Shown here: one piece after another, positions 10,850 to 35,764 of the stretch
How positions within the stretch are numbered: the first letter of the stretch is position 1
Layout: each line of letters starts with the position of its first letter
Assembly (NCBI GenBank): GCA_044892525.1
Contig: CM097888.1
Span: forward strand, 69,874,001 to 69,938,000
Direction of reading: 5' to 3'
Length of the DNA: 64,000 nucleotides
DNA from: Schmidtea polychroa
Taxonomy: Eukaryota
The notes under the pieces: model-generated
Told to the model about the DNA's origin: nothing
The model's input: the letters and a program-made list of their open reading frames with translations, nothing else
The model's database searches: none
Program-made: the position numbers and the translations under genes

Positions 10850-13800
10850 TGTTGCGGGTACACTACTCGGATGACCCTTTTCTAGTGCAGCTTTAGTCTA
10901 GAGGATGAATGCCCACCTTGATTTCGCCCATCATTTATTTGGTCATCGCCGAGCGGGACCCGTACATAACCTACACTCCAGCATAGCACCCGTGAATTGC
11001 TTCACGTTGGAACTGTGCTATGCCGGCGAGACGCCAGTAAGCAGGTGAGCCAGCTCCTTCGGACTACTCCTTACTGAGGCCTCGACTTCCCAACCCTGAC
11101 TGCCGATAGAAGGACTTACGTCTACTCATTCCGTCGCCCCTCGCAATAATTCTAGCTGAGTTTACCAACTGACTAATGCTCCTCATAATTTTATGACTCT
11201 CAATGCCATTTACCAATTTCAACTCAACTGTCTTAAGGTGAGCACAAAGAAAAAACGTATGCAGACAAAAATGGTTTATTATTAAGGTTATCACACAAAT
11301 ATATCTAACACCTATACAATAAAATTCCCGACAACAGGAAAAGAGACAAAGGTAAAAATGTTATCAGACAATGTTCGGGCCATTTCAGAGAACGAAGACT
11401 TTTTACGGAGAAATTCTCATTTCTCCCACTCCGAGTCTGCCAATAGATCTTCCAAATCGAAAAACTCAGAGGCATTTTCCTCCCAGGTAACACCAGCGGC
11501 GGAGATGATTCGCCCTGAGATCACTGATGCTAAATCGATTGCTGCAGGAGGGTTGATGACTTTGATTGGATGATCCGACGATCGCGGGTTCTGTTTGGCG
11601 GTTACGCGTTCCCGCTGTTTCTTTTTGCGTTCGGCTCTCGATAATTGCCGACGCTTTGGTTTCGATGCCGTTGGATTGGTCGGGGGTGCTGCGGAGGTGG
11701 ATGCTATCGCAGGTAGCACGTTACTGGTTCCGGTAAAGATGATTTCTGGTTCTTTAGGTGAGAGCTCGGTCTCTACGCACCCATGGCAAGGCTTTCCGAC
11801 TGGAGAAGAAGACCCGCCCGAGATATCATGATGCGCTGGGAAGAGATTACCGGCTTCATTACTTGGGATCTTCGCGATCTTCCTTGTAATTGCTGCCTGG
11901 ACGTATAATTTGTGCAGCGCCTCCGACTGCTCTTTTATCAGGCTCCTCTGCGCCCGACTCTCGGAAATCAACGCGTCTCTACAGTGCTCGCTTCGGTGCA
12001 GCTTCTTCTGAGCCTCCTTCATCTGGGTGGGACTGAACCATGTCCCCTCTAACTCATCTATCTTTCTTTTGTGCTTTCCGATCTGGGCCTGGAGCTCCTT
12101 GATAATTGAATTCTTGTCGGAGCAAGAAAAACAAGGTCGAAGAACGGTCTTGGAATTTGGCAACATTTGAGTGACTGTGGAAAAAATGGAAAATGAGAAT
12201 AATTAAATCGACGTGAGTGTCACCATCTAACCACATTCCGACTTTACTGATCATAGACAAAGATATGGGTTTACTAGTCAAGACAAGTTCTACTGTACGA
12301 TGGATCCTCATACCTTTTGGATCTTTAATTGTAAGAGGATAAATCGATCAAACCAAATTTCGTACAAGGAAAGGAAGGTATTACCATTTGTGAGAGAAAT
12401 TCTAGGTCGATGAAAATGATTATTTAGTTAATCCGCTTGCAATCATTATCTCACGTTTACTGAGAGTCGAATTAAATTGTTGACTTTTCCCCCCGAACGA
12501 GTGATTTTGATGAGTGCATCATATACTGGGGTCGAGTGACTATCTATGGAAAAAGGGGTCCATAATGTCCGTTGATCAGTTCCTACCGGATAAACGGAAA
12601 GTTATTTAATTTTTTAATTATTTATTCATTCTCTCTAATTACTCACATATGTGTTTTACCTGGTTTAAATAATATTCGATATTAATACTAATGATAATTA
12701 TGTCAAAAATTGAAATAATTTCTGTGCCATTCATGCTAAGATAATAAAGAGAGAATAATCATAATTATGATCGGGTTTGGCATTAAAAATTATTGTCTTT
12801 ATGATAACCGAGCACGGTATCAATGTGAGCTAGAAGCCGACCATTCCTGCTAGGTAGATAAGGAAATGTCAGCCCGGTGGTTGACTATTAATCCGGAGCG
12901 GTGAAATCCGATACCTGTCGGTAGTTTAATTAGTTAATAGAAATTCCATCTGGTATGTTCAGTCTGATTTTACATGAGTAGGGACGGGTGTGACTTTACC
13001 CACTGCGCTTGGCTACTGTGTATGTCTGCAACTGGTGACGCATGCAAGGTGCGCTTTCACACACTTAATTATGCTACAAATGTATGTGTTCAATGTTTGC
13101 ATGATGGCATTTCTCAGAATTTTATCTACCGCGAAATCGCTCACAGTTCTACTGCATATGATGATGATTTACTAATTCTCACCGGATTATTGGAAAAATT
13201 ATAATTATCTGTATTGCAAATGTTGGATATAGCTTGCTCCAAGGGTGGATTTTTCGTCTTTAATTCCTCAAGCCTAGTTTATCAATCTACTCTCTAAGTG
13301 CTGGAGGATTTTTTCTATCTCTGCTGGATTGCCAACCTCATGTAATACTGGAATTTTGTATTTAACAAGATTATCGGCTAACTTGAAGAAATATATTTTC
13401 TTGGTTCGAATTGGTTGCATTTTTCATTGTTAAATTAGTTGATGCCAATAGTTTATGTAATTAGGATAATTAATTGTATGTAAATTCTTTTATATATAAT
13501 TCTAAAAATTTATGATAGAGAATCATTTTATGTAATTTAAACGTTCATTTGGAACAAACTCGTTTTATGCAATTCTGAATCACTTTTTGGATTAAATCAT
13601 TTTACATGGTTCTACCATTTATTCACAAGCAGTCATTTCGAGTAATCCTAATACTTATCTGAAGCCATCTACTTTGAACTCCCTTGCAACTATGTCTTTA
13701 AGAGAACTTTTAGATGAACGGAATAACAGTTCAGAAGGTCATAGGCTAAAAATTAGTCGGAACAGATTCTGAGTGAAAAATATGAACCTCGAAGATATGT

Positions 13801-14959
13801 CACAGATAGCCTCACTAAGGTTTGAACAATTCTTGACGCACAACTTACATTGATGATGGAGAAAATTTTCTTAGCAAAAACGACATTCAAAAACGATAGT
13901 GTGACACCCTCAATCACTGCGCGAATACATCAAAATTCTCCGATTCCCTTATTACATATCTTTGTTTTCAATCACTACATGACTATCAATTTTCTGCCAC
14001 CATTTACCTATAGATTTTAGTCGCACCTTCAGCAATTGGACCCGTGAAGAAGCCTTCACATTTCGGCCCAATCTAGCTGCGTGATTGAAATACCCTATGT
14101 CCACCGGTGGAGCTCCCGAAGGCACCTCACACCATGACATAGAGTATCTCAACGCCACGTTTCTCGCAAAATTGAATAGTCTCCAATAATAATTCATAAA
14201 AATTGATTCGTAAAAGATCAATAATTCTTAACGAGCAAATCATTTATTATTAAGCAAATTATTAATTTAAATAAAGCATTCTAAAATCAAACGAAAAGAA
14301 AAACCATTTTTCAAATTAAAAATATAATTAAACTATACGCATTACTTAAAAATTCAAAATAAGCAATCAAAAATCCTTATCGAATGATTGATACTAGTAT
14401 GGGCTGAGTCGAAAAGGGTACTATGTCAAATCAGTTAATGCTTGAATATCGTCTAGTTCTGTAAAAATCTCTTGAATCTTGGAATTGTCCTCGTGAGTTA
14501 TCGTGCGTTAGTTGCTGGAGTTCTGTTCTGTCGTAGAATAGATTTACCTATTGAGGTGGTTTGATTAACAGTAGTTGTTATGTTTTTAATGCCTGCTTAT
14601 ATATTAATTTTTTGTTTGCGCGGACCAATTAGAATTGAGTACCGCTTAATTTTATTAATTTAATTTATTTTCCTTGTTTTTGAGTTATTTCTTCTTATTT
14701 TCTTTATTAAAATTATGTTTTTATTTATTTTCCTTAATTTTCTTATTATTTACTATATTTTACGTTGTTTTCCGCCATTCTATTGTCCTATTTTAATTTT
14801 TTCTCATCTTTATATTTTTTGTTTTAATTCCTATTTTCTAATTATTGTTTTTCTTATGTTTTATTCTATTTTATTTGTCAATTTATTTGTTTTTATTTTT
14901 TATTTTATTTTAGTTAAGTTTGCCCTAATTTCCCAACTACCCTTCGACTCAGCCCAACA
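10850..14959 (-). repeat. Shared LTR (3' LTR of the complete copy and 5' LTR of the left copy), 4,110 bp
   Basis: Direct repeat of 37134-41243 with no differences seen on spot checks. Same TGTTG...CAACA termini. Confidence 0.9.
11417..12166 (-). CDS. LTR-encoded ORF (middle LTR copy)
   Basis: Identical to 37701-38450. Confidence 0.6.
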   Translation of the reverse strand: MLPNSKTVLRPCFSCSDKNSIIKELQAQIGKHKRKIDELEGTWFSPTQMKEAQKKLHRSEHCRDALISESRAQRSLIKEQSEALHKLYVQAAITRKIAKIPSNEAGNLFPAHHDISGGSSSPVGKPCHGCVETELSPKEPEIIFTGTSNVLPAIASTSAAPPTNPTASKPKRRQLSRAERKKKQRERVTAKQNPRSSDHPIKVINPPAAIDLASVISGRIISAAGVTWEENASEFFDLEDLLADSEWEK

Positions 14960-15192: not shown

Positions 15193-15852
15193 CTAACCAT
15201 TTGATGCTTCTGCTGACGGTTGTTGGTTGGTTTGGGTATTGGTGTTGAGATAGGTCTGATTGTTAGAATTCGGCTGGATTGGTTGGTTACTCGGGATTCG
15301 AGGTCGGAATGGGGTTGGGTTAAGATTTGTCAGTGGCACTTCTTGAGGATTTCTGTTCGAGATTACTCTTATTGATGTCGAGATTCTGCATCTATTTCTA
15401 ACTTCGTAGATCTTCATGAGTATTGGTAGACATAGGAGGAGGGTTTCTGCGATCACCACATATATGAGATAATGGGTGTCATTGATTTCGGGAGGTGTTT
15501 TTGGTTTTTCTACAAGATTTTCAAAATTCTCTTGTTGCATTTGTTGTTCCAACTGGTCGAATTGTTGAATTTGTTCGAGGATTTGTTTGTTTATCATTTT
15601 ACAAATGGGATTCTTTTTACACATTGTTTGGATGTTGTTGATGTGTGATCGGGTTGATTGAATGGTTTGGATGATATGGATTTTTACTGTCATAGGGTAT
15701 GTGCATTGGCCGGATTCTTGTTTAGGTTCTTGATTTTGATTTCGGTAATCTCGTACGATTTTCGGTTGGGCGTTTACTTGTTTGTTCTCCATCAGAATCA
15801 TCAATACCGTTATTGTTATCATCATCTCGCCTCGCATGATACTATTATACAT
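15193..15852 (-). CDS. Accessory ORF, predicted type I membrane protein
   Basis: Signal-like MMITITVLMILMENKQVNA, helical ectodomain with Cys residues, TM YLIYVVIAETLLLCLPILM, and a P/Q/N-rich tail. Confidence 0.72.
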   Translation of the reverse strand: MYNSIMRGEMMITITVLMILMENKQVNAQPKIVRDYRNQNQEPKQESGQCTYPMTVKIHIIQTIQSTRSHINNIQTMCKKNPICKMINKQILEQIQQFDQLEQQMQQENFENLVEKPKTPPEINDTHYLIYVVIAETLLLCLPILMKIYEVRNRCRISTSIRVISNRNPQEVPLTNLNPTPFRPRIPSNQPIQPNSNNQTYLNTNTQTNQQPSAEASNG

Positions 15853-15893: not shown

Positions 15894-16658
15894 TTAATGA
15901 TTCTGGTTTGGGTTATTTTCGGCGATTCTCATCAGGGTGGATTCCGCTTTAATAACTCTGTGTCTTAACTCGGGCAGCATTTCCAACTGTCTGTTCTTTT
16001 CACGGGCCTCCCTTTTCATGTGCCTTATCTCCTTTTTCAGCCTTCTAATTTCTTCCCGTTTTTTGTCGAGGTTCCTTTTTAGTTCGATTTGTAGGAAATC
16101 TTGTTCGTTTTCCTGCGAAAGGTTTCGTTGTTGTTGTTGTTGTTGTTGTTTTCTCTCGATCTCTTGGTATTTGCGAATCCATTTCTTCATTTCCTCACTT
16201 TCTCGTTGTTTTTCCTCCAATTGTCGATTTAATTTATTTATAGTTATTTGGTGTTCTTTCGCCTTGGTTTTCCAATAATCCTGGATTACTTCTTCTGCCT
16301 TGAAGCTTGCCCTCTCTTGCCATAGTTCCTCTGCAATCTTTTCCCAGTTTCTTCCTCGTGTTCGTTGTTCTTGCAACCATTCATTCTTCTCTTCCGCTTC
16401 CCTCTTTATTTCTCCTAACACTTCGCACTCCTTCTTTAGTATTTTAATCATTTTTCGGTCTTCTATATATTTGTTTATTAGTCGCTCGTTTTCGTCCTTC
16501 TCTTCCCGTAACTTGGCCTTTAACGTTTGTGTTTCTGTTGTTTCTGCCTCAATCTCTCCCTCTTCTACGTCGCTCGTAATTTCTATTATTTCCTCGATTT
16601 TCATATCTGTAATATGTACAGTTAATGGTGCGCTATAGTGCGACTTATACATATACAT
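15894..16658 (-). CDS. Accessory ORF, coiled-coil protein with polyQ (likely start at ATG 16604)
   Basis: 254-codon ORF rich in E/K/R with a QQQQQQQ tract. MKIEEII is preceded by TACAG|AT. Confidence 0.72.
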   Translation of the reverse strand: MYMYKSHYSAPLTVHITDMKIEEIIEITSDVEEGEIEAETTETQTLKAKLREEKDENERLINKYIEDRKMIKILKKECEVLGEIKREAEEKNEWLQEQRTRGRNWEKIAEELWQERASFKAEEVIQDYWKTKAKEHQITINKLNRQLEEKQRESEEMKKWIRKYQEIERKQQQQQQQRNLSQENEQDFLQIELKRNLDKKREEIRRLKKEIRHMKREAREKNRQLEMLPELRHRVIKAESTLMRIAENNPNQNH

Positions 16659-16740: not shown

Positions 16741-16787
16741 GTTTGGGATATACGTCCCGATTTTTGTCTTTATCTTTTTATTCACCC

Positions 16788-17843
16788 TTATACGAAGGTT
16801 TCCTCCTGTCCCACATAACCTTCGTCACTATCGACCGCTGGATGCAACTGTATCGCAATAGGGTCATAGGGTAGGTAATATTGGGGGATTTGAGCTCTCA
16901 ATTCATTAACTTCATCTCTTAGAGCTCGAGTGATATTCAGCTCTTCGTCGAGCAGATAAGTGAGATACCTTGTCTCTTCGTCTTTCGCCTCTACTTGTCT
17001 ATCTAAGGCCTTGATTTTCTCGTCGCCCTTCCATTTTTCAATTTCTATTTCCAAGTTTTTGATATTTTCGGTATACATTTTCCTCTCGTTTTCTAATTTT
17101 CTGTTTTTTCCCGCTAGGACCATGTTTCTTTGTTCTAACGATCCTTGTAGTCCATTAAGGTCTCTTTTCATCTCTTCGACCTGATTTACTAATTCCACAA
17201 CCCGTCCTGCTTGCTGGGTTATCATCTCTTCCATTGCAGCATTCTCGTGCTCTCTTATGTCGCATTTTATTGCCAAATGTCGTTCAAACTCCATAGCCTT
17301 CATCTGCCATGTTTGGCTTCGGGCGGCGACCTTTTTCAACCGTTTCAGTTCTTCCTTTATTATTAAATTTTCCTCCCATTTACCCTGTTCGCTCTCATAT
17401 CCGAGTCTCATGGGCAATTCTTTCATCTCTTTTTTCATTTCATTGCTTTGTCTTTTCCATTTTCTCGCTTCTGCCACTAAGTGCATCATTTTCCTTCCTT
17501 CTATTTGCTTTTCCGCTTCGCGCTTGGTGTTCTCATCGGTAAGTCTCTTTCTCGCTTCCTGCACTAGCTGCTTTAAGTAGTGGCTGTGCGCTTCTTGGCG
17601 GGTATTTTCTAGTGACGCCCATTTTGATGCTCTTTTGCATGCTTCTGCTTCCGCTCTTAAGTTGTGTATTAACCATTGGTATTGACTATTCTCATCCTCT
17701 CTAGCTTCTTCGATGTGATTTCGGGTGAGATTAGTTAGTTGGAACATTACTTTGTTCCATTTTTTGTTATGTTCTCGGGGAATTTGTGTCTTGTTGACAT
17801 TGGTTGGGACTATCGCAGTTTCGGTTAGTTTCTCTTGTGTCAT
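16788..17843 (-). CDS. Accessory ORF, 351-aa coiled-coil protein (unknown)
   Basis: Long uninterrupted ORF rich in E/K/R/L with heptad character and element-like A-rich codon bias. Confidence 0.75.
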   Translation of the reverse strand: MTQEKLTETAIVPTNVNKTQIPREHNKKWNKVMFQLTNLTRNHIEEAREDENSQYQWLIHNLRAEAEACKRASKWASLENTRQEAHSHYLKQLVQEARKRLTDENTKREAEKQIEGRKMMHLVAEARKWKRQSNEMKKEMKELPMRLGYESEQGKWEENLIIKEELKRLKKVAARSQTWQMKAMEFERHLAIKCDIREHENAAMEEMITQQAGRVVELVNQVEEMKRDLNGLQGSLEQRNMVLAGKNRKLENERKMYTENIKNLEIEIEKWKGDEKIKALDRQVEAKDEETRYLTYLLDEELNITRALRDEVNELRAQIPQYYLPYDPIAIQLHPAVDSDEGYVGQEETFV

Positions 17844-18037
17844 CTCTAAATCATAGACATCGATTAAGCTTTTTATTATGAAAAAGGAATTTATTCATTA
17901 TTTGCTGTTTCTTTGGAAATTTTCGCATCATTTTTGGGTTTACGTATTTAGGGTTTTTCATACTATTATTATATAATATTTTATTGGTTATATACACCGA
18001 TATATACAGATTATTATATACAACATTATTCGATCGT

Positions 18038-19426
18038 TTACTCCGTTCTGCCCTTCTCCTCTTTCCTTACGGTCATCTTGATATACACCGTGCCATTTCT
18101 TGCCATATCTTCTACTTTTTGTTGTAGGATGAACGTAGGTGCTCCTGTTGCTGATCCTTCTTCTTCCGTAGGTCTCTGGTAACACATTTGGTTTCCAGTT
18201 GTCTTGAAGCTTTGTTCGTGGATGTTTCGGTCATTCATTAGTGCAATATCGATTTTCGCCTGGAACGGCCACTCTATTATTTCGTCGTATTCTCCTTTAC
18301 ATAACAGAAAGAAAATCGAAAAGTGTGTGTCTAATCCGGTTCCGTCCCCGTTGGGATATATCTTCATTTTCATTTTGTACCCATTTTTCCAAGAATGGAA
18401 TGCAGGACTTGTTATTCTTGTCTCTTCTCCGGTTTTTGCTTTTCGTATTCTTTCCTTTACTCCCGTAATCTTCCATATGTAGGGTGCTGTTGGGGTTATC
18501 TCATTTAGATTTATTTCCCGTATTTTCTGATGTAGCTCCTTGGCCTGATTATTACTGATTTCTATTCGGTTTATTTGCATCTTTATGTTTGCTCGGGCTT
18601 CTTCGAACGCTTCCCTTTCTTCTAGTAGTTCTTTGACTAACACTTTCAACGATGCTATCTCTATCTCCATTTGTTTTACTTTCTCCTCGCTTTCTTGTAA
18701 CGCAGTCGACCACATTTCTGCGTGGGTTGAAGCATTTTCTACTAAATGATGTGGTAACTCCCCTCGGTGTAGTAGTTTCTGACAACCCCATTTGCCTAGT
18801 ACGCATGTCATTCTTTTCTTTTCACATTCCCTTAGATGCTGTGCCACCTTCATTATTTCCCCTTGGTTACATCCGTTTGGGCATTCCCCACTGAACTCTG
18901 CACATACTCTCTCCTCTTGGACATTGTGATGTTTGAGGGTGAGATTTTTCCACGTATCTATTTCTCCACAGTGTTCACATCTTTCTAATCTCTCCTCACA
19001 CTGCCTTTGATGCTCTTTTTCTTCGCTTGCTCGAATGGTTTTATGGCACCTTTCACACTGGCCAATTCTGTACATACATTCTCCCATATGTTGTACTACC
19101 TTCCATATTACTCCTTTCCATTCGCATGGGGCATTTTTGCATCCCAGGTTGGTGTTTAACATGTCTTTCACTGCGGCTTTATCCTCGTTAGTGTCTTCTA
19201 AACTCGATATTAGTGTCTCTTTACACACCGGGCACCTCTGTGGTCTATTCTTTATTGCTTCACTGATACATTCTTTACATACTCTGCATCCACATTGGGT
19301 TTGGTGGGGTTCTTTTAGTAACTTTTCACAGATTCCGCACATAACATGTTTGTGTATTCTGATCGTTGTAGATTTTCGGACTTGCTCGACAATCTCTCTG
19401 AACTCTTCTCTTTGTCGTTTATCCAT
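18038..19426 (-). CDS. traf: TRAF-family protein (RING, TRAF zinc fingers, coiled coil, MATH/TRAF-C), intronless, element-borne
   Basis: RING CGICEKLLKEPHQTQCGCRVCKECI...CPVC. ZnFs CKNAPCEWKG..HMGEC. MATH YIWKI..SPAFHSWKNGYKMKMKIYPNGDGTGLDTHFSIFFLLCKGEYDEIIEWPF, which resembles TRAF2/3/5. Confidence 0.93.
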   Translation of the reverse strand: MDKRQREEFREIVEQVRKSTTIRIHKHVMCGICEKLLKEPHQTQCGCRVCKECISEAIKNRPQRCPVCKETLISSLEDTNEDKAAVKDMLNTNLGCKNAPCEWKGVIWKVVQHMGECMYRIGQCERCHKTIRASEEKEHQRQCEERLERCEHCGEIDTWKNLTLKHHNVQEERVCAEFSGECPNGCNQGEIMKVAQHLRECEKKRMTCVLGKWGCQKLLHRGELPHHLVENASTHAEMWSTALQESEEKVKQMEIEIASLKVLVKELLEEREAFEEARANIKMQINRIEISNNQAKELHQKIREINLNEITPTAPYIWKITGVKERIRKAKTGEETRITSPAFHSWKNGYKMKMKIYPNGDGTGLDTHFSIFFLLCKGEYDEIIEWPFQAKIDIALMNDRNIHEQSFKTTGNQMCYQRPTEEEGSATGAPTFILQQKVEDMARNGTVYIKMTVRKEEKGRTE

Positions 19427-19511
19427 TCTATAATTATATGTACATATAGTTCTTATCGATACAGGTTCGATATTTTATTTACAGTTATTTACATTTTAAG
19501 CTAGGTTTGGT

Positions 19512-19871
19512 TTAGGGTTCGGAAGAGTCGGCTTCGTGTCCGCTCTCCTCTCTATTCATTAACCATTCCGACCAGTCTTCTATTTCTGTCTGTTCTGCTT
19601 CCTCCATCATTCTGTTTAGTTCAATTTCCTGTCTACGGCTATATTGGGTTATCCTCTCTATCTCTCTTTGCATTTGTTCGATTTTCAACCTCTGGTCTTC
19701 AATTATCTTCAAATAACTAAATCCTCTATTCATACTCTCGATTAGGTTTCTGTGCATCGTCAATCCTTGTTCTTGCAAATTGGACACTAATTGTGCTAAT
19801 ACGGCACATTGTTGCTTCCATAATTCTTCAGTTACTGTATTGTGGTTCATTTCGTTATTTCCTTGATCCAT
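19512..19871 (-). CDS. Accessory ORF, small coiled-coil protein with acidic C-terminus (function unknown)
   Basis: Open frame; the first ATG is at 19871 (MDQGNNE...), while the track start at 19895 is TTG. Heptad-like helical composition. Confidence 0.65.
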   Translation of the reverse strand: MDQGNNEMNHNTVTEELWKQQCAVLAQLVSNLQEQGLTMHRNLIESMNRGFSYLKIIEDQRLKIEQMQREIERITQYSRRQEIELNRMMEEAEQTEIEDWSEWLMNREESGHEADSSEP

Positions 19872-20164: not shown

Positions 20165-23100
20165 TTATCTTTGATTATTTTTATTGTCGCCCCCCGTTAT
20201 GATTAGGAAGGCCCCTGTTATTATTATCCCACTGATCCACATCATCTGCTTCACGCTTATATTCTCTGGTTTCTCCTTGTTCGTTAATGTTGATATCGCT
20301 TCTATACCTTTCTCGTTTCCTCTTTTGCCATTTCCTTTCATCATTTCCCGTATTCTTGCTATTTCCTCGTTCATACCCTCCTTTGCCATCTTTTGTATTT
20401 TTTCCATCTCTTCCTCCGAAACATAGTTGTCCTGAGCTTCCTCGCCGGTTTTCTTGTGCTTTCCTCCTTCGTTCTTTTCGTCGTGGTTTTTTCTTTTCTT
20501 TCCTCTTTTCCCTGGGTATCGTCGGCATTCTCTTTTTGATTCATTCCTCCAGATACAAACCGTGTATTCTTTCGGCGGCTGCTGCTGCGTCACATATTGA
20601 TGGCATCTCTCACCTGGTCCTAATCTTGAAATACAGACTTTGTGCTCTCTTCTAGGTTGGAGCTGCGTTATTACTATTTCACCACCTTTTCCTAGGTGTA
20701 CCTCTTTTCCTTTAACGTTCGTTATTCTCTTCCCGTCTCGATTTCGGTATGCTTCTTGTATTCTTACTTCTGTTATTGGTTCTGTGTCCTCATTTATCAG
20801 TACTAGTTTCTGATACGCTCTAGACATGCATCTTCCTAGTATGCACCTTTCCTTTAAGTCCCATTCTTCCTTTAAATCCCACTGCTGCTCTTGTGCTTGC
20901 TTTTTCTTTTCTTGTTTTAGTTCATCCTCTTTGCTATCTTGATTCTCCGCTTCTTTGGTTTCTTTTATCGTTCTCGTCCCTCCATGAGCTGTTACTAACT
21001 CTATCATGGTAAGCATAATTATCATTAATATCATATTTGTCTCTATTTCTTTGTTAGTGAAAGGTAGGCATACCCTCTGTTTTCCATTATTCGGTTTTTC
21101 CTCCTCTTTGGTCTTGGTTCCCGGGCTGTTTCCCTCTCTTTTCGTATCCAAATCCTTGTTTTCCGGTTTATCCTCTTCCGGTTCTCTTTTCCCTTTATCC
21201 TCTTTTCGGCCTTTTCCGTCATTGTCATCGTGTTTATCTCCCCCGCTGTCGTTTAAAATGTCGTCCTCGACATTTATATCGTTCAATAATCTGCGATATG
21301 CTGTTAGCACTCTGTTTCTTGCTAATTTTGCTTCGAATTCAAACTCTTTTCTACCCGTTGCAGCATGTCTCTTTCTATTCCATTCTTTAACTAACTCTCT
21401 CAATTGCATACGACGATGTTTCCCAATTCGTTGTTGCTCGTTCTGATTTTGCGTGAATTTTAGGTCTTCTCTATTTAATACTATTAAAATAATTTTAGGC
21501 GTCCCCCCTTTAGTTAGGGTATTCTTTACCATCGCATTTTCTCCGTTTTCGTAGAATTCGTTTACATTTATCGCATATTTATTATTTTGTGGTACCTTCC
21601 ATGTTAATAATAATTTCATTGCTTCTAGATTTTTCCGTACCGTATTCCATTGAAATTGAGATGTGTTTTTGCACATATTCTCAACTTCTTCTTTTGTCGC
21701 ATTTTTGCAAATAAATCTGATCATTTCTAAGTTTGGCTGTATGGTTGCCCAGTCCAATGTGGAGTTCCCTTCGTTTGATTTTTCGTCTAGTCTCGATCCT
21801 GATTGATGTAAGATGTGGAGTGTTTTTGGGTGTATTTTCGTTATAGCTGCATACATCATGGCGGTTTCACCTTGTTCATTTTTCGTGTTGGTTTCCTCAC
21901 CCATCTCCCCAAGGATTCTCATGATCGTTATTGCTCTATTCTCTTTTGCAGCTAGTATTGCTTGTTGTAGAGGTGTTCTGGAATCCTTTGTTACCATCGT
22001 AAATGCTCGAGGCAAGAAGGTTTTGATTTTCCCGATATCTAAACCCGTGGTTTGATCTCTTGCGTATGTGTGTACGGCTTTTATTATTTTGGACAATATT
22101 ATTTCGTCTGGCAGCTCTAGCATTTCCTCAAAGAACACTTCTTTTGCTTTGCGTATTATTGCCTCTTGATCTATACTCATTGATTTGGTTTCGATGACGT
22201 TGTTTGTGACCGTTTGGTTCGTTGTTGACTTTGATTCCCTTGATTTCTCATACCTTATTTTCGTTTTCTTTCCGTTTGGATTATTGATTCGTTCCTCTGC
22301 TGTAAGTATTTGGATAATATCCAGGTAATTCTCGCGGATGTTATTCATTGTGTCCATCATATATAACACACTTACCGTTTCCCAATATTTATTTCGTACT
22401 TGGTTAGTAAATTGGAATATTGATTTTTCGAATGTGTCGATTCGCTTTTTTGCTAACTGTTCATCTTTATGATTTGTGAATTTTATCCCTCGTTCTAGTA
22501 ATTGATTCGGAATTTCGAATAAATGATGTCCTTTCATAGCTTCTCTCATCAGCGTGTTCTCTCCTCTCGTGAACGCTTCGTTTACGTTGATCATATAATC
22601 GTTTTGAATTGGATTTCTCCATGTAATTAATATTCCGGTAATTGTTGTCAGTTTCTCTTTGATCGCTGTTAATAATCCATCATACATGTTTCCGACTTCT
22701 CGATTGTCCTCATATGATAGTAGTTCCATCAACGACGTGAACGCCTCGGTACTTTTCCCTTCGATAGCATGATGTAGAGCGTTTTTCCGCTCGTGGTCTT
22801 GTGTAGTTATTTTCGATCCAGTATCGAGTAATGCGGTTATAATGTCTTTTGTTTTGCCTCTGTTTGCGGCTATCATTAATGGTGTGTAACCTTGGTTGTT
22901 TGTTTGTTCTGTTGATCGCTTGCAGTCGTGAAATGCTTCTATTGTTTCTAGTATTTGCTCGTTGTTACCTACTTTCATGAGTTTGTGTAATGGTGTGTCT
23001 CCGTAATGATCTGTTATTGTAAATAATATTGGCCATTGGCTTTTGACTACTCGCAATAATGGGTGTGTCCTTTCTCTATTTGCATAGTTCTCGATCATCG

Positions 23101-26100
23101 TCAATAATCCTCCTAATATTTCGAAATCTAATCGATCTTTTGCCCATCCAGGTATTTTAATTTTTACCTCTTTTACAATCTTTTCCGCTTCTGATGGTTG
23201 GATACCCAATCGTCCGGTGATCGGTTCTGCGAGTTGTTGCATCATGTTCATTCTGTAGGTTTGCGAACGTGTGGTTAATGTACGGCCCTCTGGTTGACTA
23301 GTGGCTGTTTTTGGAATTGATTTGCATCGTGCTACGTTTACGTATATTGGCCTGGTAAATGGGTTATTTACCAATTTCACTCTTACATTGGTTTCGCCTA
23401 CGAATAAGATCTCATATGGTCCTTTTCCGTTGCGTTGTAACTTTTTTGTGGTTCCTGGAATTAATTCCGGGGTTTCTATCATTACCCAATCACCTGTTTG
23501 AAACGTATGTTGCTTCACGTTTTTCTTTCGATCGTGTAAATCTTTATAACTTTCCTGGTAGAACTTGATATTTAATCCCGCAGTTTCCCAAATCTCCTGC
23601 ATTCTTTCCTTGAATTTCGTAACATAATCGTCGATCTCCATATACTGCGATATCGGTGGTTGGTATTCCAGGTCCATTGGCATATTACATTCTCTTCCGT
23701 ACATTAATTTGAATGGGCTCATTTTCGTTGATGCGTGAATCGACATTCTGTACGCCATAAGACATAGGTTTATATATTCGTCCCAATCTCGTTGGTGACG
23801 GTCAACGTAGTTTGATAACATTTGTATAAGTGTTCCATTAAATCTTTCCGTCATCCCATTGGTTTGGGGGTGGTATGGAGATGTTCTTAGTTTTGCTATT
23901 TTGAAGTAATTTGTTACTTCGCTCATTATCTCACTCATAAAATTAGTTCCCTGATCGGTTAATATCTGTTTTGGTGTTCCATATCGGCAACATATCTCTT
24001 CTACCAGAATTTTTGCGATTGTTTTAGCTTTTTGGTCTGGCATCGCGAATGCTTCTGGAAATTTCGTAAGAAAGTCGGTAATCACTAAAATATAAACGTT
24101 TCCTCTATCCGATTCCGGTAATGGACCAACTACGTCCATTGATATCATCGTCATCGGCTCTATTGGTACGGGCATTGGCGTTAAAGGCGCTTTCCATTTT
24201 GATCCAGTATTTTTCCTGGTCGCACAAGTTAGGCAATTTTTTACCCATTCGGTTACATCTTCAGTTAACGTAGGCCAAAAATATTTCTGTTTCATTCTTG
24301 CTAACGTCTTTTTCGATGACATATGTCCTCCCAATCTCCCATCGTGATATTGCGTTAGTAACTCTTTTCGTCGGTTTTCCGGTATACACATTAATCGTTT
24401 TTCCCCATCCATTATCAGCAACCAATCTTTCTCTATAATATATCGGTGTCGGTGTTTATCCATATGTTCTTTTAATTTTTGGTCTTTCGCATATACATCT
24501 GTCTTTCCGGTTTTTACATAATCGATAATTTGTTTTAATTCCGCGTCCTCTTGTTGGTTCTTTCGCAATTGACAGAAATCTAGGTCTTCTGCTACCATTA
24601 GGCATATGCGTTGCATTTCTGAATCCACCAAATCTGGAAAAATAAATCTTGACATACAATCGGCGTTGGCATTTGCTCTTCCCGCTTTGAATTTTATAAA
24701 TGGGGAGTATTCTTGCAATTGCATGGCCCATCTCATCAGTCTACTGGACGCTTCTTTATGTTGCCCTAACCACACTAATGGTTGATGATCTGTGGTTATA
24801 CATATCTCATGTCCCCATAGTAAATATCGGAAGTGTTTGATAGCTTGTATTATAGCCAATGCTTCTCGTTCTGTTACCGAATAGTTCTTTTCGTGCTTTT
24901 TGAATGTTCGACTGTAATACCCGATTACTCTCTCTTTTCCTTCATCGTCTAATTGTCCCAGAATCGCGCCTGCCGCGTACCCGCTTGCATCCGTTGCCAA
25001 TAGAAATGGCTTCTTAAAATCTGGGTGTACTAGGATAGGTGCTTCGATTAGTTTATCTCTCAGCGTTTCAAACGCCTCTTGTTGTTCCTTCCCCCAAATG
25101 AACGAAATGTCCTTCTTTACTAATTCCTGGATTGGTTTTGCAATTTCTGCATAATTTTTTATAAATTTGCGATAGTATCCGCATAATCCTAGAAATTCCT
25201 GAACTTGGGTGACAGTTTTCGGTGCTGGACATGTTTTTATTTTCTCAATGTTTCTTGGATCTGGCTCCTTTCCTTTAGCTGACACTATGTGTCCTAAAAA
25301 CGTGACTTTTTCCTTTGCCCAATCGCATTTTGATGGTTTGAGTTTGAGTTTCCACTGTCTTAATCTAATAAATACGTTTCGGATATCTTCCAGATGTTGT
25401 TCAAATGTCGCTGAATAGATTAGTAAATCATCAATATATACCATACATTGTTTGATTCCATGAGTGACAAAGTTCATACACCGTTGAAATGATGCTGGTG
25501 CGTTGGTCAGTCCGAATAGCATTTTCCTGAATTGATATAGATCTCGTCCCAACGTGAAAGCTGTTTTCTCTTTGTCCTCATCTTTGACTTTAATCTGCCA
25601 GTATCCACTTTTTAGATCTAAAGAAGTAAAATATGCTGCCCCTTGCAACATCAATAACATCTCATTGATGTCCGGCAATGGATAGGTATCTCTCTTGGTT
25701 ACTGCGTTTAACTTCCGATAATCGATACAGAATCGTTGGGTGCCATCTTTCTTTTTTACCATGACCACTGGGAATTGCCAGGGTGAGCAACTTGGTTCGA
25801 TTACTTTTGCGTCTAGCATCTTTTGTACTTCTGCTTCGGCTATTTCTTTTTGCATTTCTGCTAGCTTGTATGGTCTTAATGCAATTGGAGTTTCATCTAT
25901 GAGGGGTATTGCATGTAGGGTAACATCGCATGTACCCAAATCTAAATCTGAGATGGCGAATATATCTTTATATTCTACCAACAATCGGTGCAATTTTTTC
26001 TTTTCATCATTCGTCAACAACATACTATCTATTGTCCATAATTCATCATCTTTGATCATCTCGTTGGTCACTTTCGGTAATTCTATGTCCATCATTGGGG

Positions 26101-28870
26101 TCAATCTTCCCAATTTTTCGTTCTCATAAATGATTTTGTCTTCCTCTTCGAAATTCGTGATGTTGAGCGGTATCACTCCTTCTTGGTTTATTGTGATTAT
26201 TTCCCTTTCGAGTGGTAACTCTCGTCGCTTTTCAAATGACTTGCTTGGTTCAAAGATAACTTCTCCTTCCATACCCGTATCCACTTTTATCTGACAAATC
26301 ATCTGCGATTTTGCTGGTACTATTATTTTTTCTGGACATCTGATTACTGCATTCATTTTGCATATTCTACCGGTTTTGTCTTTTAAACACATGGTGGTTA
26401 AGTCAATTACGACTTCTTTTAACAATTCTGGCATCAAATCCGTTCCGATTATGCATGGTACGCTAAGTTTTGGTATTACTGCCAAATACGTTTCAATTTC
26501 GTTGTCCTGGTATCTCAAAGTAGTCCACCATCTTCCGACCACGTCCACTGTTTCTTTACTACATGCTATGATGTGAATTGTTGTTGATTCGATATCTTTC
26601 CAGTGTTTACTGGGGATTTGATTAATCGCTATCGCTGATACATTAGCTCCGGTGTCTATCATAGCATTGGTTTCTTTACCATTGATTTGAATCATAACTG
26701 TTACTGCTGGACCTCCAGGTAGACTCATTGCTGCTATTGTTCTTACGTCATCTGCTTGATCTACACTTTTGGTACGTCGTGTTGGCATATAATGCATACC
26801 GGGTTGACTCGGTAATTGCGGATACATATTTTGTGTCATGGTCAAAGCTGCTTGTGGTCCCACGATATCCGGTGGTATGTAGCTTCCATTGGCGATCCAG
26901 GTATTTGTCTTTTCCTTTTCCCAATATGGTGCCGTTTCCATTGGTTTTTCGTTTGGGTTTCTGTTTGGATATAGACATTTATCGTTCCCGTTATCGTCGT
27001 CGTCACTATCGCTGTTAGATGATTGGCTTCTAAATCGGTTCAAGAATTTTGGCTTATTCTTTTTCAATTGTCGTCTTGTTGCTTCATCGTACATTACTTT
27101 CCGGAATCGTCTGCCTACTTCTTCGTCGGTTCCTTTAATCTTTGTTAATATTTTAATCAATTGCTTTATCCGATGAATGTCTTTTGAGTGACCATGTAAT
27201 ACCATGGTTTTAGCTAAAAATGGTAGAAAGCCTACTATCATTTTCCAATTTACTTTCTTTTCTCGCTTGTATATATCAAAACACGCTAACATTTGTGTTA
27301 GTTTTACTCTGACTATCTGAATTATGAGTATGATCCCTAATATCCCGGCCATCATTTGTCCAAAAACTAAGAATCTTCCCCACATTGCTTTCATCATGTT
27401 CGATGTGGCTTGTTGAAAATGGTCTGGTGATAGTAGCAGCTCGTAATTCGGGCCTGATTGATAATTTGTTCCCCCCGTTATTGTAACCATATTTGACAAA
27501 ATGGATTCTCGTCTGGCTGGGAAGAGTACGTTAAGTCGTGCTGTTTCTAGATCTTCTGGGGAATACATACCACCGTTTGACACGTCTATAGGTTTGAAAT
27601 CCAGCTCTGTGGCGAGTTCTATTAATCCAAATTTCTTGGGCTCCTCGGATATGGTTTTTCCCGGTAACATCATCCATTTCCCATCGGGTCTTTCATACAA
27701 AGGTCCGTATGCATTAGAACAGTTAAAGAGATTTGGGTAGAAACCCACTGGATTCATAATTCTAGTGACTGGTAGGACGAATCGATTTTGTCCTTTATAA
27801 CGGATTTCTAATTCATTTGCACATCTCTTTTCGGGTAGTATGGATTTTTCTGGCATTCGTGCATACGTCTTGGTACACTGGTATGTGTACATCACTTCTC
27901 CTACCATTCTACCAAAATGTCCATCTGGTAATGGGAGTGATGGCATTGTGTTATCTGGGTGTGTTATCGCAATAGCTAACTTGGTTTTCAGTATTTCTTT
28001 ATTCAATGAACAATCGTTTTGTATCAGATCGTAATATACTTTTTGCAAGGTCGTTTGTCCACGGTGAAATAGAAAATCCATTTTATTATTTGCATATAAG
28101 TATAGTTTTACGTCCTCCGTTGCTATCTTTCCCACTGCTCTATCGATTATTTGTCTCGACATATAGATACCAGCGTAATTGGTTTTATATACTATACTGT
28201 CACATTTGGTGGTTTCTTTCTCTTTGATAAATCTCATACCTAGATCTGGATCGTCTGTGATTAATGCTGTTGGTGTCTTCTGCGTTGAAAGTCTCTTTTC
28301 TCTGGGAGATGGTGGCATTGGTTTTCCATTTCGCATTCTCACCCTGTCGTTTCCATCCTCGTCGTTCTCGTTCTCATATATTTCTCCTTTTACTTCATTG
28401 AACAAAGCACTTTTTAACAGTTGGAGTCGGCATTTTTGGGTATTAGCTTCATAGATTATAGTTGATACTCCTGTCCTGCATACGTTTTCTGTAGCTCTAC
28501 ACGCTGGGTTGGTCTTCATTTGATAATTATTTGCGTCAAATTGCGCTTCGTATTCTTTTAATTCGACCGTGTAAGACTCGATCACTACTACTCCCGATAT
28601 TACCTCACCTCGGATCGTATACGTACCTCCGTTACATGACCCATCTGATGATTTTAGTTTTCCGGATACGTAAACGCTTTCGGTTTTAATCATTCCAGTT
28701 TGTCCGTGAATCGTCACTCCGTTATGCATTTTTAGCGCTCCGGTTCTAAATAGCTCTTTACAGTCCTCTCGTTGTATGGATACGATTTCTTTATCCAGAC
28801 CAGGTAGTATAAGAGTCGAATACGAATATTGTCCACAGTAATATGGAGTACCTTTTTTGATACCACGCAT
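20165..28870 (-). CDS. pol: Env-Pol polyprotein (2,901 aa ORF): chuvirus/gB-like glycoprotein + TM, aspartic protease, RT, RNase H, integrase, ankyrin repeats, C-terminal membrane module
   Basis: Env motifs YYCG, GSCNGG, GEVMYTYQC, RCANEL, FVLPVTRI and a TM at ~27305-27375. PR IDTGA (26648-26656). RT PYK/SPW/DYRKLN/LDLKSGYWQ/FGLTNAP/YIDD (25427-25438). RH TDAS..EREALA..TDH. IN HHCC, MDVVGP, TDQG, ERFN, GPY. ANK motifs GDTPLH, GYTPLMIAA, KNALHHA, GETAMMYAA. Confidence 0.93.
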   Translation of the reverse strand: MRGIKKGTPYYCGQYSYSTLILPGLDKEIVSIQREDCKELFRTGALKMHNGVTIHGQTGMIKTESVYVSGKLKSSDGSCNGGTYTIRGEVISGVVVIESYTVELKEYEAQFDANNYQMKTNPACRATENVCRTGVSTIIYEANTQKCRLQLLKSALFNEVKGEIYENENDEDGNDRVRMRNGKPMPPSPREKRLSTQKTPTALITDDPDLGMRFIKEKETTKCDSIVYKTNYAGIYMSRQIIDRAVGKIATEDVKLYLYANNKMDFLFHRGQTTLQKVYYDLIQNDCSLNKEILKTKLAIAITHPDNTMPSLPLPDGHFGRMVGEVMYTYQCTKTYARMPEKSILPEKRCANELEIRYKGQNRFVLPVTRIMNPVGFYPNLFNCSNAYGPLYERPDGKWMMLPGKTISEEPKKFGLIELATELDFKPIDVSNGGMYSPEDLETARLNVLFPARRESILSNMVTITGGTNYQSGPNYELLLSPDHFQQATSNMMKAMWGRFLVFGQMMAGILGIILIIQIVRVKLTQMLACFDIYKREKKVNWKMIVGFLPFLAKTMVLHGHSKDIHRIKQLIKILTKIKGTDEEVGRRFRKVMYDEATRRQLKKNKPKFLNRFRSQSSNSDSDDDDNGNDKCLYPNRNPNEKPMETAPYWEKEKTNTWIANGSYIPPDIVGPQAALTMTQNMYPQLPSQPGMHYMPTRRTKSVDQADDVRTIAAMSLPGGPAVTVMIQINGKETNAMIDTGANVSAIAINQIPSKHWKDIESTTIHIIACSKETVDVVGRWWTTLRYQDNEIETYLAVIPKLSVPCIIGTDLMPELLKEVVIDLTTMCLKDKTGRICKMNAVIRCPEKIIVPAKSQMICQIKVDTGMEGEVIFEPSKSFEKRRELPLEREIITINQEGVIPLNITNFEEEDKIIYENEKLGRLTPMMDIELPKVTNEMIKDDELWTIDSMLLTNDEKKKLHRLLVEYKDIFAISDLDLGTCDVTLHAIPLIDETPIALRPYKLAEMQKEIAEAEVQKMLDAKVIEPSCSPWQFPVVMVKKKDGTQRFCIDYRKLNAVTKRDTYPLPDINEMLLMLQGAAYFTSLDLKSGYWQIKVKDEDKEKTAFTLGRDLYQFRKMLFGLTNAPASFQRCMNFVTHGIKQCMVYIDDLLIYSATFEQHLEDIRNVFIRLRQWKLKLKPSKCDWAKEKVTFLGHIVSAKGKEPDPRNIEKIKTCPAPKTVTQVQEFLGLCGYYRKFIKNYAEIAKPIQELVKKDISFIWGKEQQEAFETLRDKLIEAPILVHPDFKKPFLLATDASGYAAGAILGQLDDEGKERVIGYYSRTFKKHEKNYSVTEREALAIIQAIKHFRYLLWGHEICITTDHQPLVWLGQHKEASSRLMRWAMQLQEYSPFIKFKAGRANANADCMSRFIFPDLVDSEMQRICLMVAEDLDFCQLRKNQQEDAELKQIIDYVKTGKTDVYAKDQKLKEHMDKHRHRYIIEKDWLLIMDGEKRLMCIPENRRKELLTQYHDGRLGGHMSSKKTLARMKQKYFWPTLTEDVTEWVKNCLTCATRKNTGSKWKAPLTPMPVPIEPMTMISMDVVGPLPESDRGNVYILVITDFLTKFPEAFAMPDQKAKTIAKILVEEICCRYGTPKQILTDQGTNFMSEIMSEVTNYFKIAKLRTSPYHPQTNGMTERFNGTLIQMLSNYVDRHQRDWDEYINLCLMAYRMSIHASTKMSPFKLMYGRECNMPMDLEYQPPISQYMEIDDYVTKFKERMQEIWETAGLNIKFYQESYKDLHDRKKNVKQHTFQTGDWVMIETPELIPGTTKKLQRNGKGPYEILFVGETNVRVKLVNNPFTRPIYVNVARCKSIPKTATSQPEGRTLTTRSQTYRMNMMQQLAEPITGRLGIQPSEAEKIVKEVKIKIPGWAKDRLDFEILGGLLTMIENYANRERTHPLLRVVKSQWPILFTITDHYGDTPLHKLMKVGNNEQILETIEAFHDCKRSTEQTNNQGYTPLMIAANRGKTKDIITALLDTGSKITTQDHERKNALHHAIEGKSTEAFTSLMELLSYEDNREVGNMYDGLLTAIKEKLTTITGILITWRNPIQNDYMINVNEAFTRGENTLMREAMKGHHLFEIPNQLLERGIKFTNHKDEQLAKKRIDTFEKSIFQFTNQVRNKYWETVSVLYMMDTMNNIRENYLDIIQILTAEERINNPNGKKTKIRYEKSRESKSTTNQTVTNNVIETKSMSIDQEAIIRKAKEVFFEEMLELPDEIILSKIIKAVHTYARDQTTGLDIGKIKTFLPRAFTMVTKDSRTPLQQAILAAKENRAITIMRILGEMGEETNTKNEQGETAMMYAAITKIHPKTLHILHQSGSRLDEKSNEGNSTLDWATIQPNLEMIRFICKNATKEEVENMCKNTSQFQWNTVRKNLEAMKLLLTWKVPQNNKYAINVNEFYENGENAMVKNTLTKGGTPKIILIVLNREDLKFTQNQNEQQRIGKHRRMQLRELVKEWNRKRHAATGRKEFEFEAKLARNRVLTAYRRLLNDINVEDDILNDSGGDKHDDNDGKGRKEDKGKREPEEDKPENKDLDTKREGNSPGTKTKEEEKPNNGKQRVCLPFTNKEIETNMILMIIMLTMIELVTAHGGTRTIKETKEAENQDSKEDELKQEKKKQAQEQQWDLKEEWDLKERCILGRCMSRAYQKLVLINEDTEPITEVRIQEAYRNRDGKRITNVKGKEVHLGKGGEIVITQLQPRREHKVCISRLGPGERCHQYVTQQQPPKEYTVCIWRNESKRECRRYPGKRGKKRKNHDEKNEGGKHKKTGEEAQDNYVSEEEMEKIQKMAKEGMNEEIARIREMMKGNGKRGNEKGIEAISTLTNKEKPENISVKQMMWISGIIITGAFLIITGGDNKNNQR

Positions 28871-29175
28871 TCCCTTGCTTGCGTTCTGATGAAATCTGAT
28901 TCTTGATATACATGGTAAGTAACTTTTGTTCTTACTATGTCTAATTTGTTGGGTGATGCTTGTCTACATTCTTCTATGTCTCTCAATGAGTATTTATCTC
29001 TCATTATCATATTATCACAATCGTAGATGGTAAAACCCGTTGCTCCACTGGTGCACAACATCCATATCATCATAGTCATCATTAACGAATTTATTGATGC
29101 TTTTCGGCTTGTTGGGTCTTTCATGGGTAGTTCCCATTCTAGTTCATTTAGCAACTTCTTCAATCTAACTTGCAT
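28732..29175 (-). CDS. env: N-terminus of the envelope glycoprotein (signal peptide plus start of ectodomain); joins the large ORF by a -1 shift near 28852-28858
   Basis: Hydrophobic leader SLMMTMMIWMLCTSGATG, then FTIYDC...IEEC...HVYQ...ECVVSKK. This continues as (G)TPYYCGQYS in the -1 frame, as expected for chuvirus-type G N-termini. Confidence 0.78.
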   Translation of the reverse strand: MQVRLKKLLNELEWELPMKDPTSRKASINSLMMTMMIWMLCTSGATGFTIYDCDNMIMRDKYSLRDIEECRQASPNKLDIVRTKVTYHVYQESDFIRTQARECVVSKKVLHITVDNIRIRLLYYLVWIKKSYPYNERTVKSYLEPER

Positions 29176-33875: not shown

Positions 33876-35239
33876 GATTGGTGTTCTAGATTCGTCTGTT
33901 TCTTTTAAATTGTCTAACGATGTGACTAAACTTTGGGCTGATAATTCCTCGGTTGACGTTGCTAAACTATTAGTGATGTCGGACAGACTTTCTCTGCTTC
34001 GAGATCGACTAGGGGTGTATCCGAGATTTTCTTGATCAAATATAGGTACTTGATTGGTTCTTCTTGATCCTTGTGATATTCCTCTTTGCTGTTTAATAGA
34101 TCGTCCTCTTTTGAGTTGTTGTAATTCGTCTCCTGAAAATAATACGTCTCCTGGCTTACTTGAAGATCTAAGATTGGGTTTATCCGTGATTCCTTTCTTA
34201 CGCTTCTTGGTAATTAGCGGCTATTGAATTGGACGAGTTCGGTTCTGATTGTGTTTCCTTCGATAAATATTCTGTATGAATCTGCTACTGTGATTCTGAG
34301 GAGATTCACTAGTCCTTGACAGATGGCTGCTAATATTATGAGGTTGAATATATCGATGATTCGTTCGAAGTTGGAGATGTCGCTATCTGTATCTTCTTCC
34401 GTTCTGGAGTCTTCCGGTTGCTGTGTCTCTCGGTGCGGGTTCTGAATGGATTTATTCTTGGTCGATTGTCGATTTCTTCGAATTCCTTTTGTGCAGGTTC
34501 TGGATTGTCTTGGTTGACTGGATTGGTTTGATATCTAAAATTAAAAAATGATCTCGTGTTGCATTTGCTTACACGACTTCATCATTCTTTCAACAACGTT
34601 CGAACACAGACACCTTTTAGGTTCTGTTTATGCTTCCCCTATTGTTTATGCAATTACTTCCGCGGGTTATAATTTCCCATCAGCCCGAATTTTTCGTCGA
34701 TTTTAAATTATCTATATGGGGTAGTAACAATTATCTATAAAGTCGTAATAATTATCTATTCGTTATCAATTATAGTAAAAATAGGTCGTTGTCGGTCTCT
34801 GCTTATTACTCCCCTTCGTTTTCCTATTCCTTTTGCGCTGTTGTCGCTATTTTACTTTTCATATTTACTATTATTACACTCGGTTCGACTCTGGGACCAA
34901 TAAAATGCATTTTCCCGGTTTAACCAAAAAAAATATTCCGTAGAGTTTCTCTACTTCACTGGGATCCCTTTAATTAGTTGGTTACTTTCCTCTTTACTCA
35001 TTATCATCGTTTCGCCTATTCTTTATTTTCCATTATCTCTTTAATTCGGTTCCTTCTTCCCTTTCCTTTTTCATTATAATCTTATTATCTTTTCCACGAG
35101 CTCGTTTATTTCCTCTCTAAACTCAAATTTTCGTAATTACATTCAATTTGTTTCTAGCTGGCTTTAATATTCCCTTTCTCTATTAATTCAGATATTAGCT
35201 CATTGTAGCTTAACTGCTATCTCTCGCTTTTCTAGGCCT

Positions 35240-35764
35240 TTACGACTGGCTGGCACTATTCAACAGCTCAATCTTCTTCCTCCTGACCGGTTGGACTATT
35301 CGACAACTCGATCTTACGACTGGCTGGCACTATTCAACAGCTCAATCTTCCTCCTTCTGATCGGTTGGACTATTCGACAACTCGATCTTACGACTGGCTG
35401 GCACTATTCCACAGCTCAATCTTCCTCCTTCTGATCGGTTGGACTATTCGACAACTCGATCTTACGACTGGCTGGCACTATTCAACAGCTCAATCTTCCT
35501 CCTTCTGATCGGTTGGACTATTCGACAACTCGATCTTACGACTGGCTGGCACTATTCCACAGCTCAATCTTCCTCCTTCTGATCGGTTGGACTATTCGAC
35601 AACTCGATCTTACGACTGGCTGGCACTATTCAACAGCTCAATCTTCCTCCTTCTGATCGGTTGGACTATTCGACAACTCGATCTTACTATCTCCGAACTG
35701 GCTGGACTTTTCACAGCTCAGTTTTCGTTTTCCTTGACCGGCTGGACTATTTACAGCTCGGCTT
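35240..35764. repeat. 74-bp tandem repeat in the element leader (6 full units plus 1 degenerate)
   Basis: Copy of 8956-9480. Confidence 0.92.

Follow-up and report, generated by a model that had tools for sequence, protein, structure and literature searches.

Planarian genomes contain giant gypsy-like long terminal repeat (LTR) retrotransposons called Burro or GYPSM1 (Jurka 2007 and Grohme 2018, cited in PMC6431247). Published work already documents TRAF/MATH cargo in Burro: a MATH_TRAF_C domain was described from the Burro-1 polyprotein and, in Dugesia tigrina, from an upstream accessory open reading frame (ORF), and the elements have been proposed to meddle with host apoptosis and ubiquitination (PMC6431247). 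SMEDWI-2 represses Burro-1 RNA, the level of which increases in the intestine once SMEDWI-2 is lost (PMC8532177). The planarian hosts have an expanded MATH/TRAF repertoire, put at 121 domains (PMC6109357) or 282 contigs (PMC7586133) in published transcript counts, the significance of which has been called unresolved (PMC8807557). Among infectious or selfish elements, a TRAF is likewise encoded by ISKNV, the ORF111L product of which binds TRADD and alters apoptosis (PMC3352826). In a search that lay outside Grohme 2018 and Repbase, we found no published account of a full-length TRAF downstream of pol, of selection on such a TRAF or of acceptor, UGUAHAUA and AAUAAA signals around it. The ORF may be shown in Grohme 2018 (main text or supplements) or in the Repbase report; the available text of PMC11410931 contains a single mention of Burro and none of TRAF.

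The window analysed here, a stretch of 64,000 nucleotides from Schmidtea polychroa, contains an LTR element of 30.4 kb from LTR to LTR, with TG...CA ends and 4,110-bp LTRs that are 100% identical. On the minus strand, the order is LTR, 161-aa RING ORF, 74-bp repeats, gag, fusion glycoprotein, protease, reverse transcriptase (RT), RNase H, integrase, ankyrins, five accessory ORFs and LTR, with the TRAF being the second of the five accessory ORFs 3′ of pol:

41244..41247, plus strand: right target-site duplication GTAG, the left copy of which lies 15.4 kb ahead of the window
37134..41243, minus strand: 5′ LTR, 4110 bp, containing a 249-aa ORF of no known family
36325..36810, minus strand: upstream accessory ORF, 161 aa, C3HC4_3 RING (Pfam)
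35092..35835, no strand assigned: 74-bp tandem repeat in the leader
29160..33875, minus strand: Gag (retrotrans_gag, CCHC knuckles) and subsequent cargo region (Pfam)
28732..29175, minus strand: 147-aa ORF in another frame in the gag-pol interval, without Pfam match, which from its location is probably the start of the envelope region
20165..28870, minus strand: fusion glycoprotein, protease, RT, RNase H, integrase and ankyrin repeats (Pfam)
19512..19871, minus strand: accessory ORF, 119 aa, the family-B homolog of which lies ahead of the TRAF
18038..19426, minus strand: TRAF accessory ORF, 462 aa, single frame (ORF list, Pfam, PDB matches, AlphaFold2 model)
16788..17843, minus strand: accessory ORF, 351 aa, coiled-coil-like, with a family-B homolog
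15894..16658, minus strand: accessory ORF, 254 aa, coiled-coil-like, with a family-B homolog
15193..15852, minus strand: accessory ORF, 219 aa, in which stretches resembling a signal peptide and a membrane span were noted by eye
10850..14959, minus strand: middle LTR, common to two tandem units

By its match to the published description (PMC6431247), we identify the element as a Burro-type giant gypsy: it is similar in size (approximately 30 kb), has LTRs of 4–5 kb, a GTAG duplication, gag, an envelope-like region, PR-RT-RH-IN and ankyrins, and carries TRAF/MATH and IAP-type cargo. Unlike in the described Burro, a full RING-finger-coil-MATH protein is encoded downstream of pol. The polyprotein, approximately 4,800 aa and unbroken in the Burro description, is divided among three frames in the window copy and takes the form of a 4,688-aa ORF in a sister family (family B). 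Unlike in Burro-1, no MATH was found in the polyprotein of the window's family (family A) by Pfam or family comparison, whereas family B has both forms, with MATH also inside its polyprotein. Together with the 40 kb before it, the window holds a tandem LTR-internal-LTR-internal-LTR array with a unit of 26,284 bases; the two units (window 1-41243 and C4 ahead of the window) are 99.97% identical and have one LTR in common. Pairs of TRAF matches approximately 26.2 kb apart also occur at C4:46.26-46.28 Mb and C2:177.70-177.73 Mb, and such tandem pairs may be real dimers or assembly artefacts. The 249-aa ORF within each LTR (37701-38450 and 11417-12166) has no Pfam match, and pieces related to it lie near host genes L076 and L084. 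The sequence following the 5′ LTR (37108-37126), common to the window element and family B, presumably resembles a tRNA-Pro primer site. Outside the element, host-like exons lie at 53573-55024 (two ORF calls, AT-rich surroundings).

The accessory ORF is a full-length TRAF in a single 462-aa frame, running from RING to MATH within the LTRs, as a sequence-only reading of this DNA had proposed:

19223..19339, minus strand: C4C4 RING, aa 30-68 (Pfam, C3HC4-type RING at aa 29-68; eight Cys ligands read directly)
18731..19138, minus strand: five TRAF-type zinc fingers, about aa 97-232 (Cys/His spacing, TRAF6/5/2 matches, model)
18500..18733, minus strand: coiled coil, aa 232-309 (AlphaFold2 model)
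18068..18481, minus strand: MATH domain, aa 316-453 (Pfam, PDB matches)

The features that define TRAF membership are thus present, namely, a coiled coil followed by a C-terminal MATH domain, and an N-terminal RING with a zinc-finger array. PDB structures matching the MATH part are TRAF1/2/3 MATH domains, with E values of approximately 1e-27 to 1e-26, and those matching the RING and fingers come from TRAF6/5/2. In the AlphaFold2 model (mean pLDDT 92.9, pTM 0.51) a 78-residue helix (232-309) joins the fingers to the MATH sandwich. The element-like, A-rich codon bias noted previously was upheld: fourfold-degenerate sites of the TRAF (A 0.54, T 0.08) resemble those of pol (chi-square p=0.24) and differ from those of 5 host TRAF ORFs (A 0.39, T 0.29; p=1.3e-6). 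The closest named relatives are TRAFs of Dendrocoelum lacteum, in line with a planarian host; a word-index protein search gave 1 relative only, the remaining ones coming from an HMMER library search. Other iridovirus and giant-virus TRAF-like proteins match as well, with 16–25% identity for the viral TRAFs among the top structural matches, but these belong to DNA viruses and have separate origins, whereas the element reverse-transcribes.

Exact-pattern searches returned 139 matches for family A and 264 for family B, 403 in total, against 0 for reversed control patterns; the patterns were 18/19-mers, and the counts are lower bounds and include broken copies. In a TRAF protein search, the 92 scored of 1911 candidates were all at least 95% full length and 91 were without a stop. 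Since this sample is skewed to intact copies, 22 copies were chosen by RT instead, from the 40 top RT matches, among them every one of the 14 that the first TRAF lists did not contain. Of these 22 copies, 19 have an intact TRAF, and 19 likewise an intact RT-integrase stretch. Among all fetched stretches, the set for family A of which purposely took in pattern matches omitted by the protein search, TRAF is intact in 56/71 (A) and 26/33 (B). The reading of the 14 RT matches without the first TRAF pattern as TRAF losses was mostly rejected: 12 hold a 90% variant (one ending early at residue 455 and one with a stop), 1 has a partial TRAF and 1 is without TRAF.

The suggested dN/dS analysis shows purifying selection in both families. 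For variants present in at least 2 copies, omega of TRAF is 0.129 (A) and 0.130 (B), compared to 0.34 and 0.32, respectively, for singletons; the RT-integrase stretch and the ankyrin tail have values of 0.04 and 0.12. Between the window TRAF and L109, dN is 0.061 and dS is 0.589. Among clean copies, that is, gap-free open copies only (47 distinct in A and 21 in B), every TRAF domain is constrained, with omega in family A of 0.11 for the RING, 0.15 for the fingers, 0.38 for the coiled coil (0.17 in family B) and 0.19 for MATH. Thus, rather than being a lone neutral insertion or a gene decayed in sister elements, the TRAF is present in hundreds of copies and intact in most of those fetched. It is hardly conceivable that the TRAF is a recent neutral passenger: the window copy is very young, its LTRs being identical, but the number of copies, an omega of approximately 0.13, the assimilated codon use and the retention of TRAF in a family with 62% pol identity all speak against it. 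Selection shows usefulness to the element but leaves the kind of use unspecified.

Families A and B are 62% identical in pol and 36% in gag, and the LTRs of family B measure 4755 bp. The family-B TRAF (474 aa) is 30% identical to that of family A and is flanked by homologs of the same neighbours. Directly after it lies a 392-aa IAP-like ORF (L071:7607-8785) with 2 BIR-like repeats (by eye) and a RING matching that of the 161-aa ORF; no such ORF is found at the equivalent place in family A. In one family-B copy, pol is interrupted by a 13.9-kb insert (L066:5023 to L067:8908) that contains approximately ten ORFs, is bounded by perfect inverted ends of 337 bp and looks Polinton-like.

Phylogenetic analysis of 38 sequences under a mixture model (selected from 151 library hits and fetched loci, omitting near-duplicates and multi-MATH proteins) placed the 5 element-type TRAFs in one clade (support 99/95), nested in the planarian-type TRAF group (98/93); for 3 of the 5 (P0001, P0005 and P0023), which are library proteins without genomic context, the element origin is presumed. 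In tests on 26 sequences, placement with non-flatworm TRAF2/3/5 was rejected (p-AU 0.003), three placements among planarian TRAFs were not, including one uniting the elements with the L035 group (p-AU 0.45), and no single planarian TRAF was singled out as the donor. The tree program flagged the skewed amino-acid make-up of the element proteins, which could draw them together; the equal position of TRAF in both families, however, gives independent support for their grouping. A single, old capture from the planarian TRAF radiation appears likely from these sequence comparisons, and since D. lacteum members occur in two host subgroups, it may predate that split. In a MATH-only tree (LG+G4), the polyprotein MATH joins the accessory TRAFs with support of 94/95, just below the support mark, suggesting one capture for both.

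Like the element TRAF, the planarian host TRAFs (Smed-TRAF-2A/B, PMC7586133; D. lacteum TRAF-2, -4 and -5) share the domain order and the CGC RING and belong to the same tree group. They differ in that the element TRAF is only approximately 30% identical to them, has element codon bias and a remodelled groove, and is dispersed in hundreds of copies. All 9 host RING-to-MATH TRAFs examined run from RING to MATH in one frame without an intron, so that intron absence is not diagnostic of mRNA capture. The earlier proposal of an old mRNA capture kept by selection is therefore borne out in age and selection but not in the use of intron absence as evidence; that the TRAF passed through RNA follows from the biology of LTR elements.

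The same reading held that element copies could inflate the apparent planarian TRAF expansion. The best 150 of 1551 MATH matches comprise 56 host-type loci, 80 family-B accessory TRAFs, 13 polyprotein MATH domains and 1 family-A match; 35 of the 56 host-type loci were fetched and translated, and the other 21 were classed by place and frame length. Element copies (403 pattern matches) exceed host-type loci (56 among those best 150), which agrees with the proposal. Yet, many host-type MATH/TRAF loci cluster on C2 (1-5 Mb, 26-32 Mb and 105-124 Mb) and those examined bear introns, so that the host expansion is real and not merely a matter of element copies. Since near-identical copies would mostly collapse in transcript assemblies, inflation of the published transcript counts is probably modest. 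Neither MATH nor PF00917 was found in six supplement files of PMC6109357, the domain table of which is possibly elsewhere.

It is most unlikely that traffic ran in the reverse direction or both ways, with some intronless host TRAFs being domesticated element copies. The 9 host TRAFs without RING-to-MATH introns, next to cluster genes with introns, and the union of elements with the L035 group that the tests did not reject would fit such traffic. However, the host groups are well supported, include D. lacteum members and have a more canonical MATH, and host TRAFs are host-like in codon use and flanks: 5 of 8 10-kb stretches around them are without a match to element proteins besides TRAF, and the remaining 3 have only short pol- or LTR-ORF-like pieces. 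Separately, library protein P0010, the ortholog of host TRAF L037, has an integrase-tail-like stretch fused at residues 15-52; in the S. polychroa genome this stretch is absent upstream of L037, and the fusion is probably a chimeric gene model.

The RING of the element TRAF reads QTQCGCRVC, with Cys at the usual His ligand, as had been seen, giving eight Cys ligands. The suggestion that this change may alter E3 activity and make the protein a decoy is not supported as an element-specific effect, because host TRAFs have the identical CGC: it is found in 9/9 host RING-to-MATH TRAFs examined and in 3/3 D. lacteum TRAFs. Among 152 library proteins, 23 have CGC and 73 have CGH, two named CGC proteins being from crinoids. 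In all 47 distinct clean family-A copies, the RING Cys residues are unchanged, and the comparison of copies and host TRAFs revealed no element-specific loss or decay of ligands. CNOT4/Not4, an otherwise unrelated protein, also has eight Cys ligands and is an active E3 (PMC4431670), so a C4C4 RING would be compatible with E3 activity, which is all that this analogy conveys.

As judged from alignments, the part remodelled in the element TRAF is the MATH peptide groove, rather than the RING. At the positions of the TRAF2 peptide-contact residues R393, Y395, D399, F447, S453-455 and S467 (PMC1334386), it has K355, Y357, D361, F407, Q413, M414, C415 and T427. Thus, 3 of 8 contact residues are identical, compared to 6 of 8 in host TRAF L035 and 7 of 8 in L037, which lowers the claim of TRAF2-type specificity but leaves TRAF membership intact; receptor binding may be lost rather than altered. 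The groove is equally divergent in one host gene, L073a. The F-K/R-P-D loop, which host TRAFs and the polyprotein MATH retain, is absent from each of the three accessory-type TRAFs in the alignment. Omega of the groove, 0.25 (A) and 0.71 (B, 13 changes), is above that of other parts; positive selection on the groove was rejected, as omega is not greater than 1 in either family.

The surroundings of the ORF hold putative expression signals:

19428..19440, minus strand: AT-rich run ending in TAG, one base ahead of the TRAF ATG, acceptor-like
17980..18022, minus strand: likely signals of a 3′ UTR and 3′ end behind the TRAF stop codon, comprising AAUAAA and three UGUAUAUA motifs

The YAG ahead of the TRAF ATG is kept in all starts found (68/68 in A and 29/29 in B). 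Across two families, AG ends 0–3 bases ahead of the first ATG in 10 of 13 accessory ORFs (background 0.23–0.31; p 6e-5 to 1e-3) and YAG follows an AT-rich run in 7 of 13 (background 0.023), with the p-values being optimistic because the criteria were set post hoc and the two families share ancestry. A total of 18 TGTA[ACT]ATA motifs occur in the 13 spacers that follow pol and the downstream ORFs (2010 bases in all; window 15853-20164 and, for family B, L071-L072), 3 of the spacers being without one. Dinucleotide shuffles gave 1.2 motifs (with no more than 6 in any of 1000), the opposite strand has 3, and the polyprotein frames have 1 in 27.8 kb. All 58 exact-length family-A copies have two or three motifs and AATAAA at most 80 bases from the TRAF stop. 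The motif is identical to the PUF consensus UGUANAUA; as rival readings, its UGUA could be a 3′-end processing element, or the motif could be a forkhead DNA site.

From these signals, it looks as if each accessory ORF has its own mRNA. The flatworm Macrostomum has spliced-leader operons, the genes of which are separated by gaps of approximately 100 bases (PMC8629364), and a planarian Pumilio is required for stem cells (PMC5855632). Cis-splicing from an LTR donor would suit the acceptor-like AG pattern equally well as trans-splicing. In three runs presumed to be RNA, compared along with one control run, read contigs, possibly from DNA, touch 28 of 30 bins of positions 9700-27000 in X1, 18 in X6 and 2 in X7; these cover TRAF in pieces, and no LTR-TRAF link is among the 15 joints listed of 41. 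The 351-aa ORF is followed by an A-run, of length 7 in 20 of 26 stretches and reaching 25 elsewhere; the idea that it is a relic mRNA tail was set aside, as slippage fits equally well. The final accessory ORF of both families (L072:1474-2460 in family B) resembles a single-pass membrane protein with a PxE motif in both tails; a predicted complex of a MATH trimer with the tail of the 219-aa protein scored 0.02, which speaks neither for nor against an interaction. A possible synthesis is a 3′ operon-like cassette of TRAF, IAP, coiled-coil proteins and the PxE-tailed membrane protein, which would be expressed as own mRNAs through cleavage and spliced-leader trans-splicing, held by Pumilio in stem cells and acting as a receptor-TRAF-IAP survival module. 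Taken jointly, we regard these propositions as doubtful. The expression cassette is the best open lead.

The position, domains, copy number, selection, collinearity in the sister family and host-shared C4C4 RING are observations. Building on these, we favour as probable that the ORF is a selected 3′ accessory TRAF of a Burro-type element, captured once long ago and acting as a zinc-intact adaptor and ubiquitin ligase by which host death and immune signalling would be retuned. The capture would have occurred through an RNA template switch, and the protein would be translated from its own subgenomic mRNA, as the acceptor-like AG, UGUAHAUA and AAUAAA suggest; with a RING competent as an E3 and a remodelled groove altering partner choice, it may, together with the IAP-type cargo, promote survival of the cells that express the element, in which signalling would be retuned. 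Against this role, the IAP-like ORF of family B lacks a counterpart at the equivalent place in family A. Planarian cell survival depends on a host TRAF (PMC7586133) and a viral TRAF affects apoptosis (PMC3352826), but the viral precedent promotes apoptosis, which is opposite in sign to the proposed survival role.

Two other uses were considered. The element TRAF might be a decoy or dominant negative that blocks signalling by assembling with host TRAFs or by binding the partners of these, as the altered groove, the lack of the F-K/R-P-D loop in the three accessory-type TRAFs aligned and the retained coiled coil (omega 0.38 in A and 0.17 in B) would allow; we consider this rather unlikely, as the Cys-for-His change is common to the 9 host TRAFs and few parts are as constrained as the RING (omega 0.11), a domain dispensable for a pure decoy. 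Alternatively, the TRAF might serve the cycle of the element, aiding assembly and release as a scaffold or ubiquitin ligase for Gag, envelope or the membrane protein. The related MATH within the family-B polyprotein and the retention of TRAF with the same neighbours in every family examined are consistent with such a role, whereas the cargo set of TRAF, IAP-like and RING proteins, along with the BCL2-like and BIR domains described for Burro (PMC6431247), indicates one host pathway and makes a role confined to the cycle clearly unlikely.

Provided that the acceptor, UGUAHAUA and AAUAAA signals are functional, they would account for the expression of five or six downstream genes by an LTR element. 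For planarian biology, the C4C4 RING emerges as the norm in the planarian-type TRAF group, genome-based counts of planarian TRAF and RING genes include both element copies and a genuinely expanded set of host genes, and RNAi and annotation in planarians must separate element TRAFs from host TRAFs. The favoured reading, a selected accessory TRAF that would retune host signalling, turns the published suggestion that Burro interferes with apoptosis and ubiquitination (PMC6431247) into a testable case, with one defined TRAF under measurable selection at approximately 400 places in the genome.
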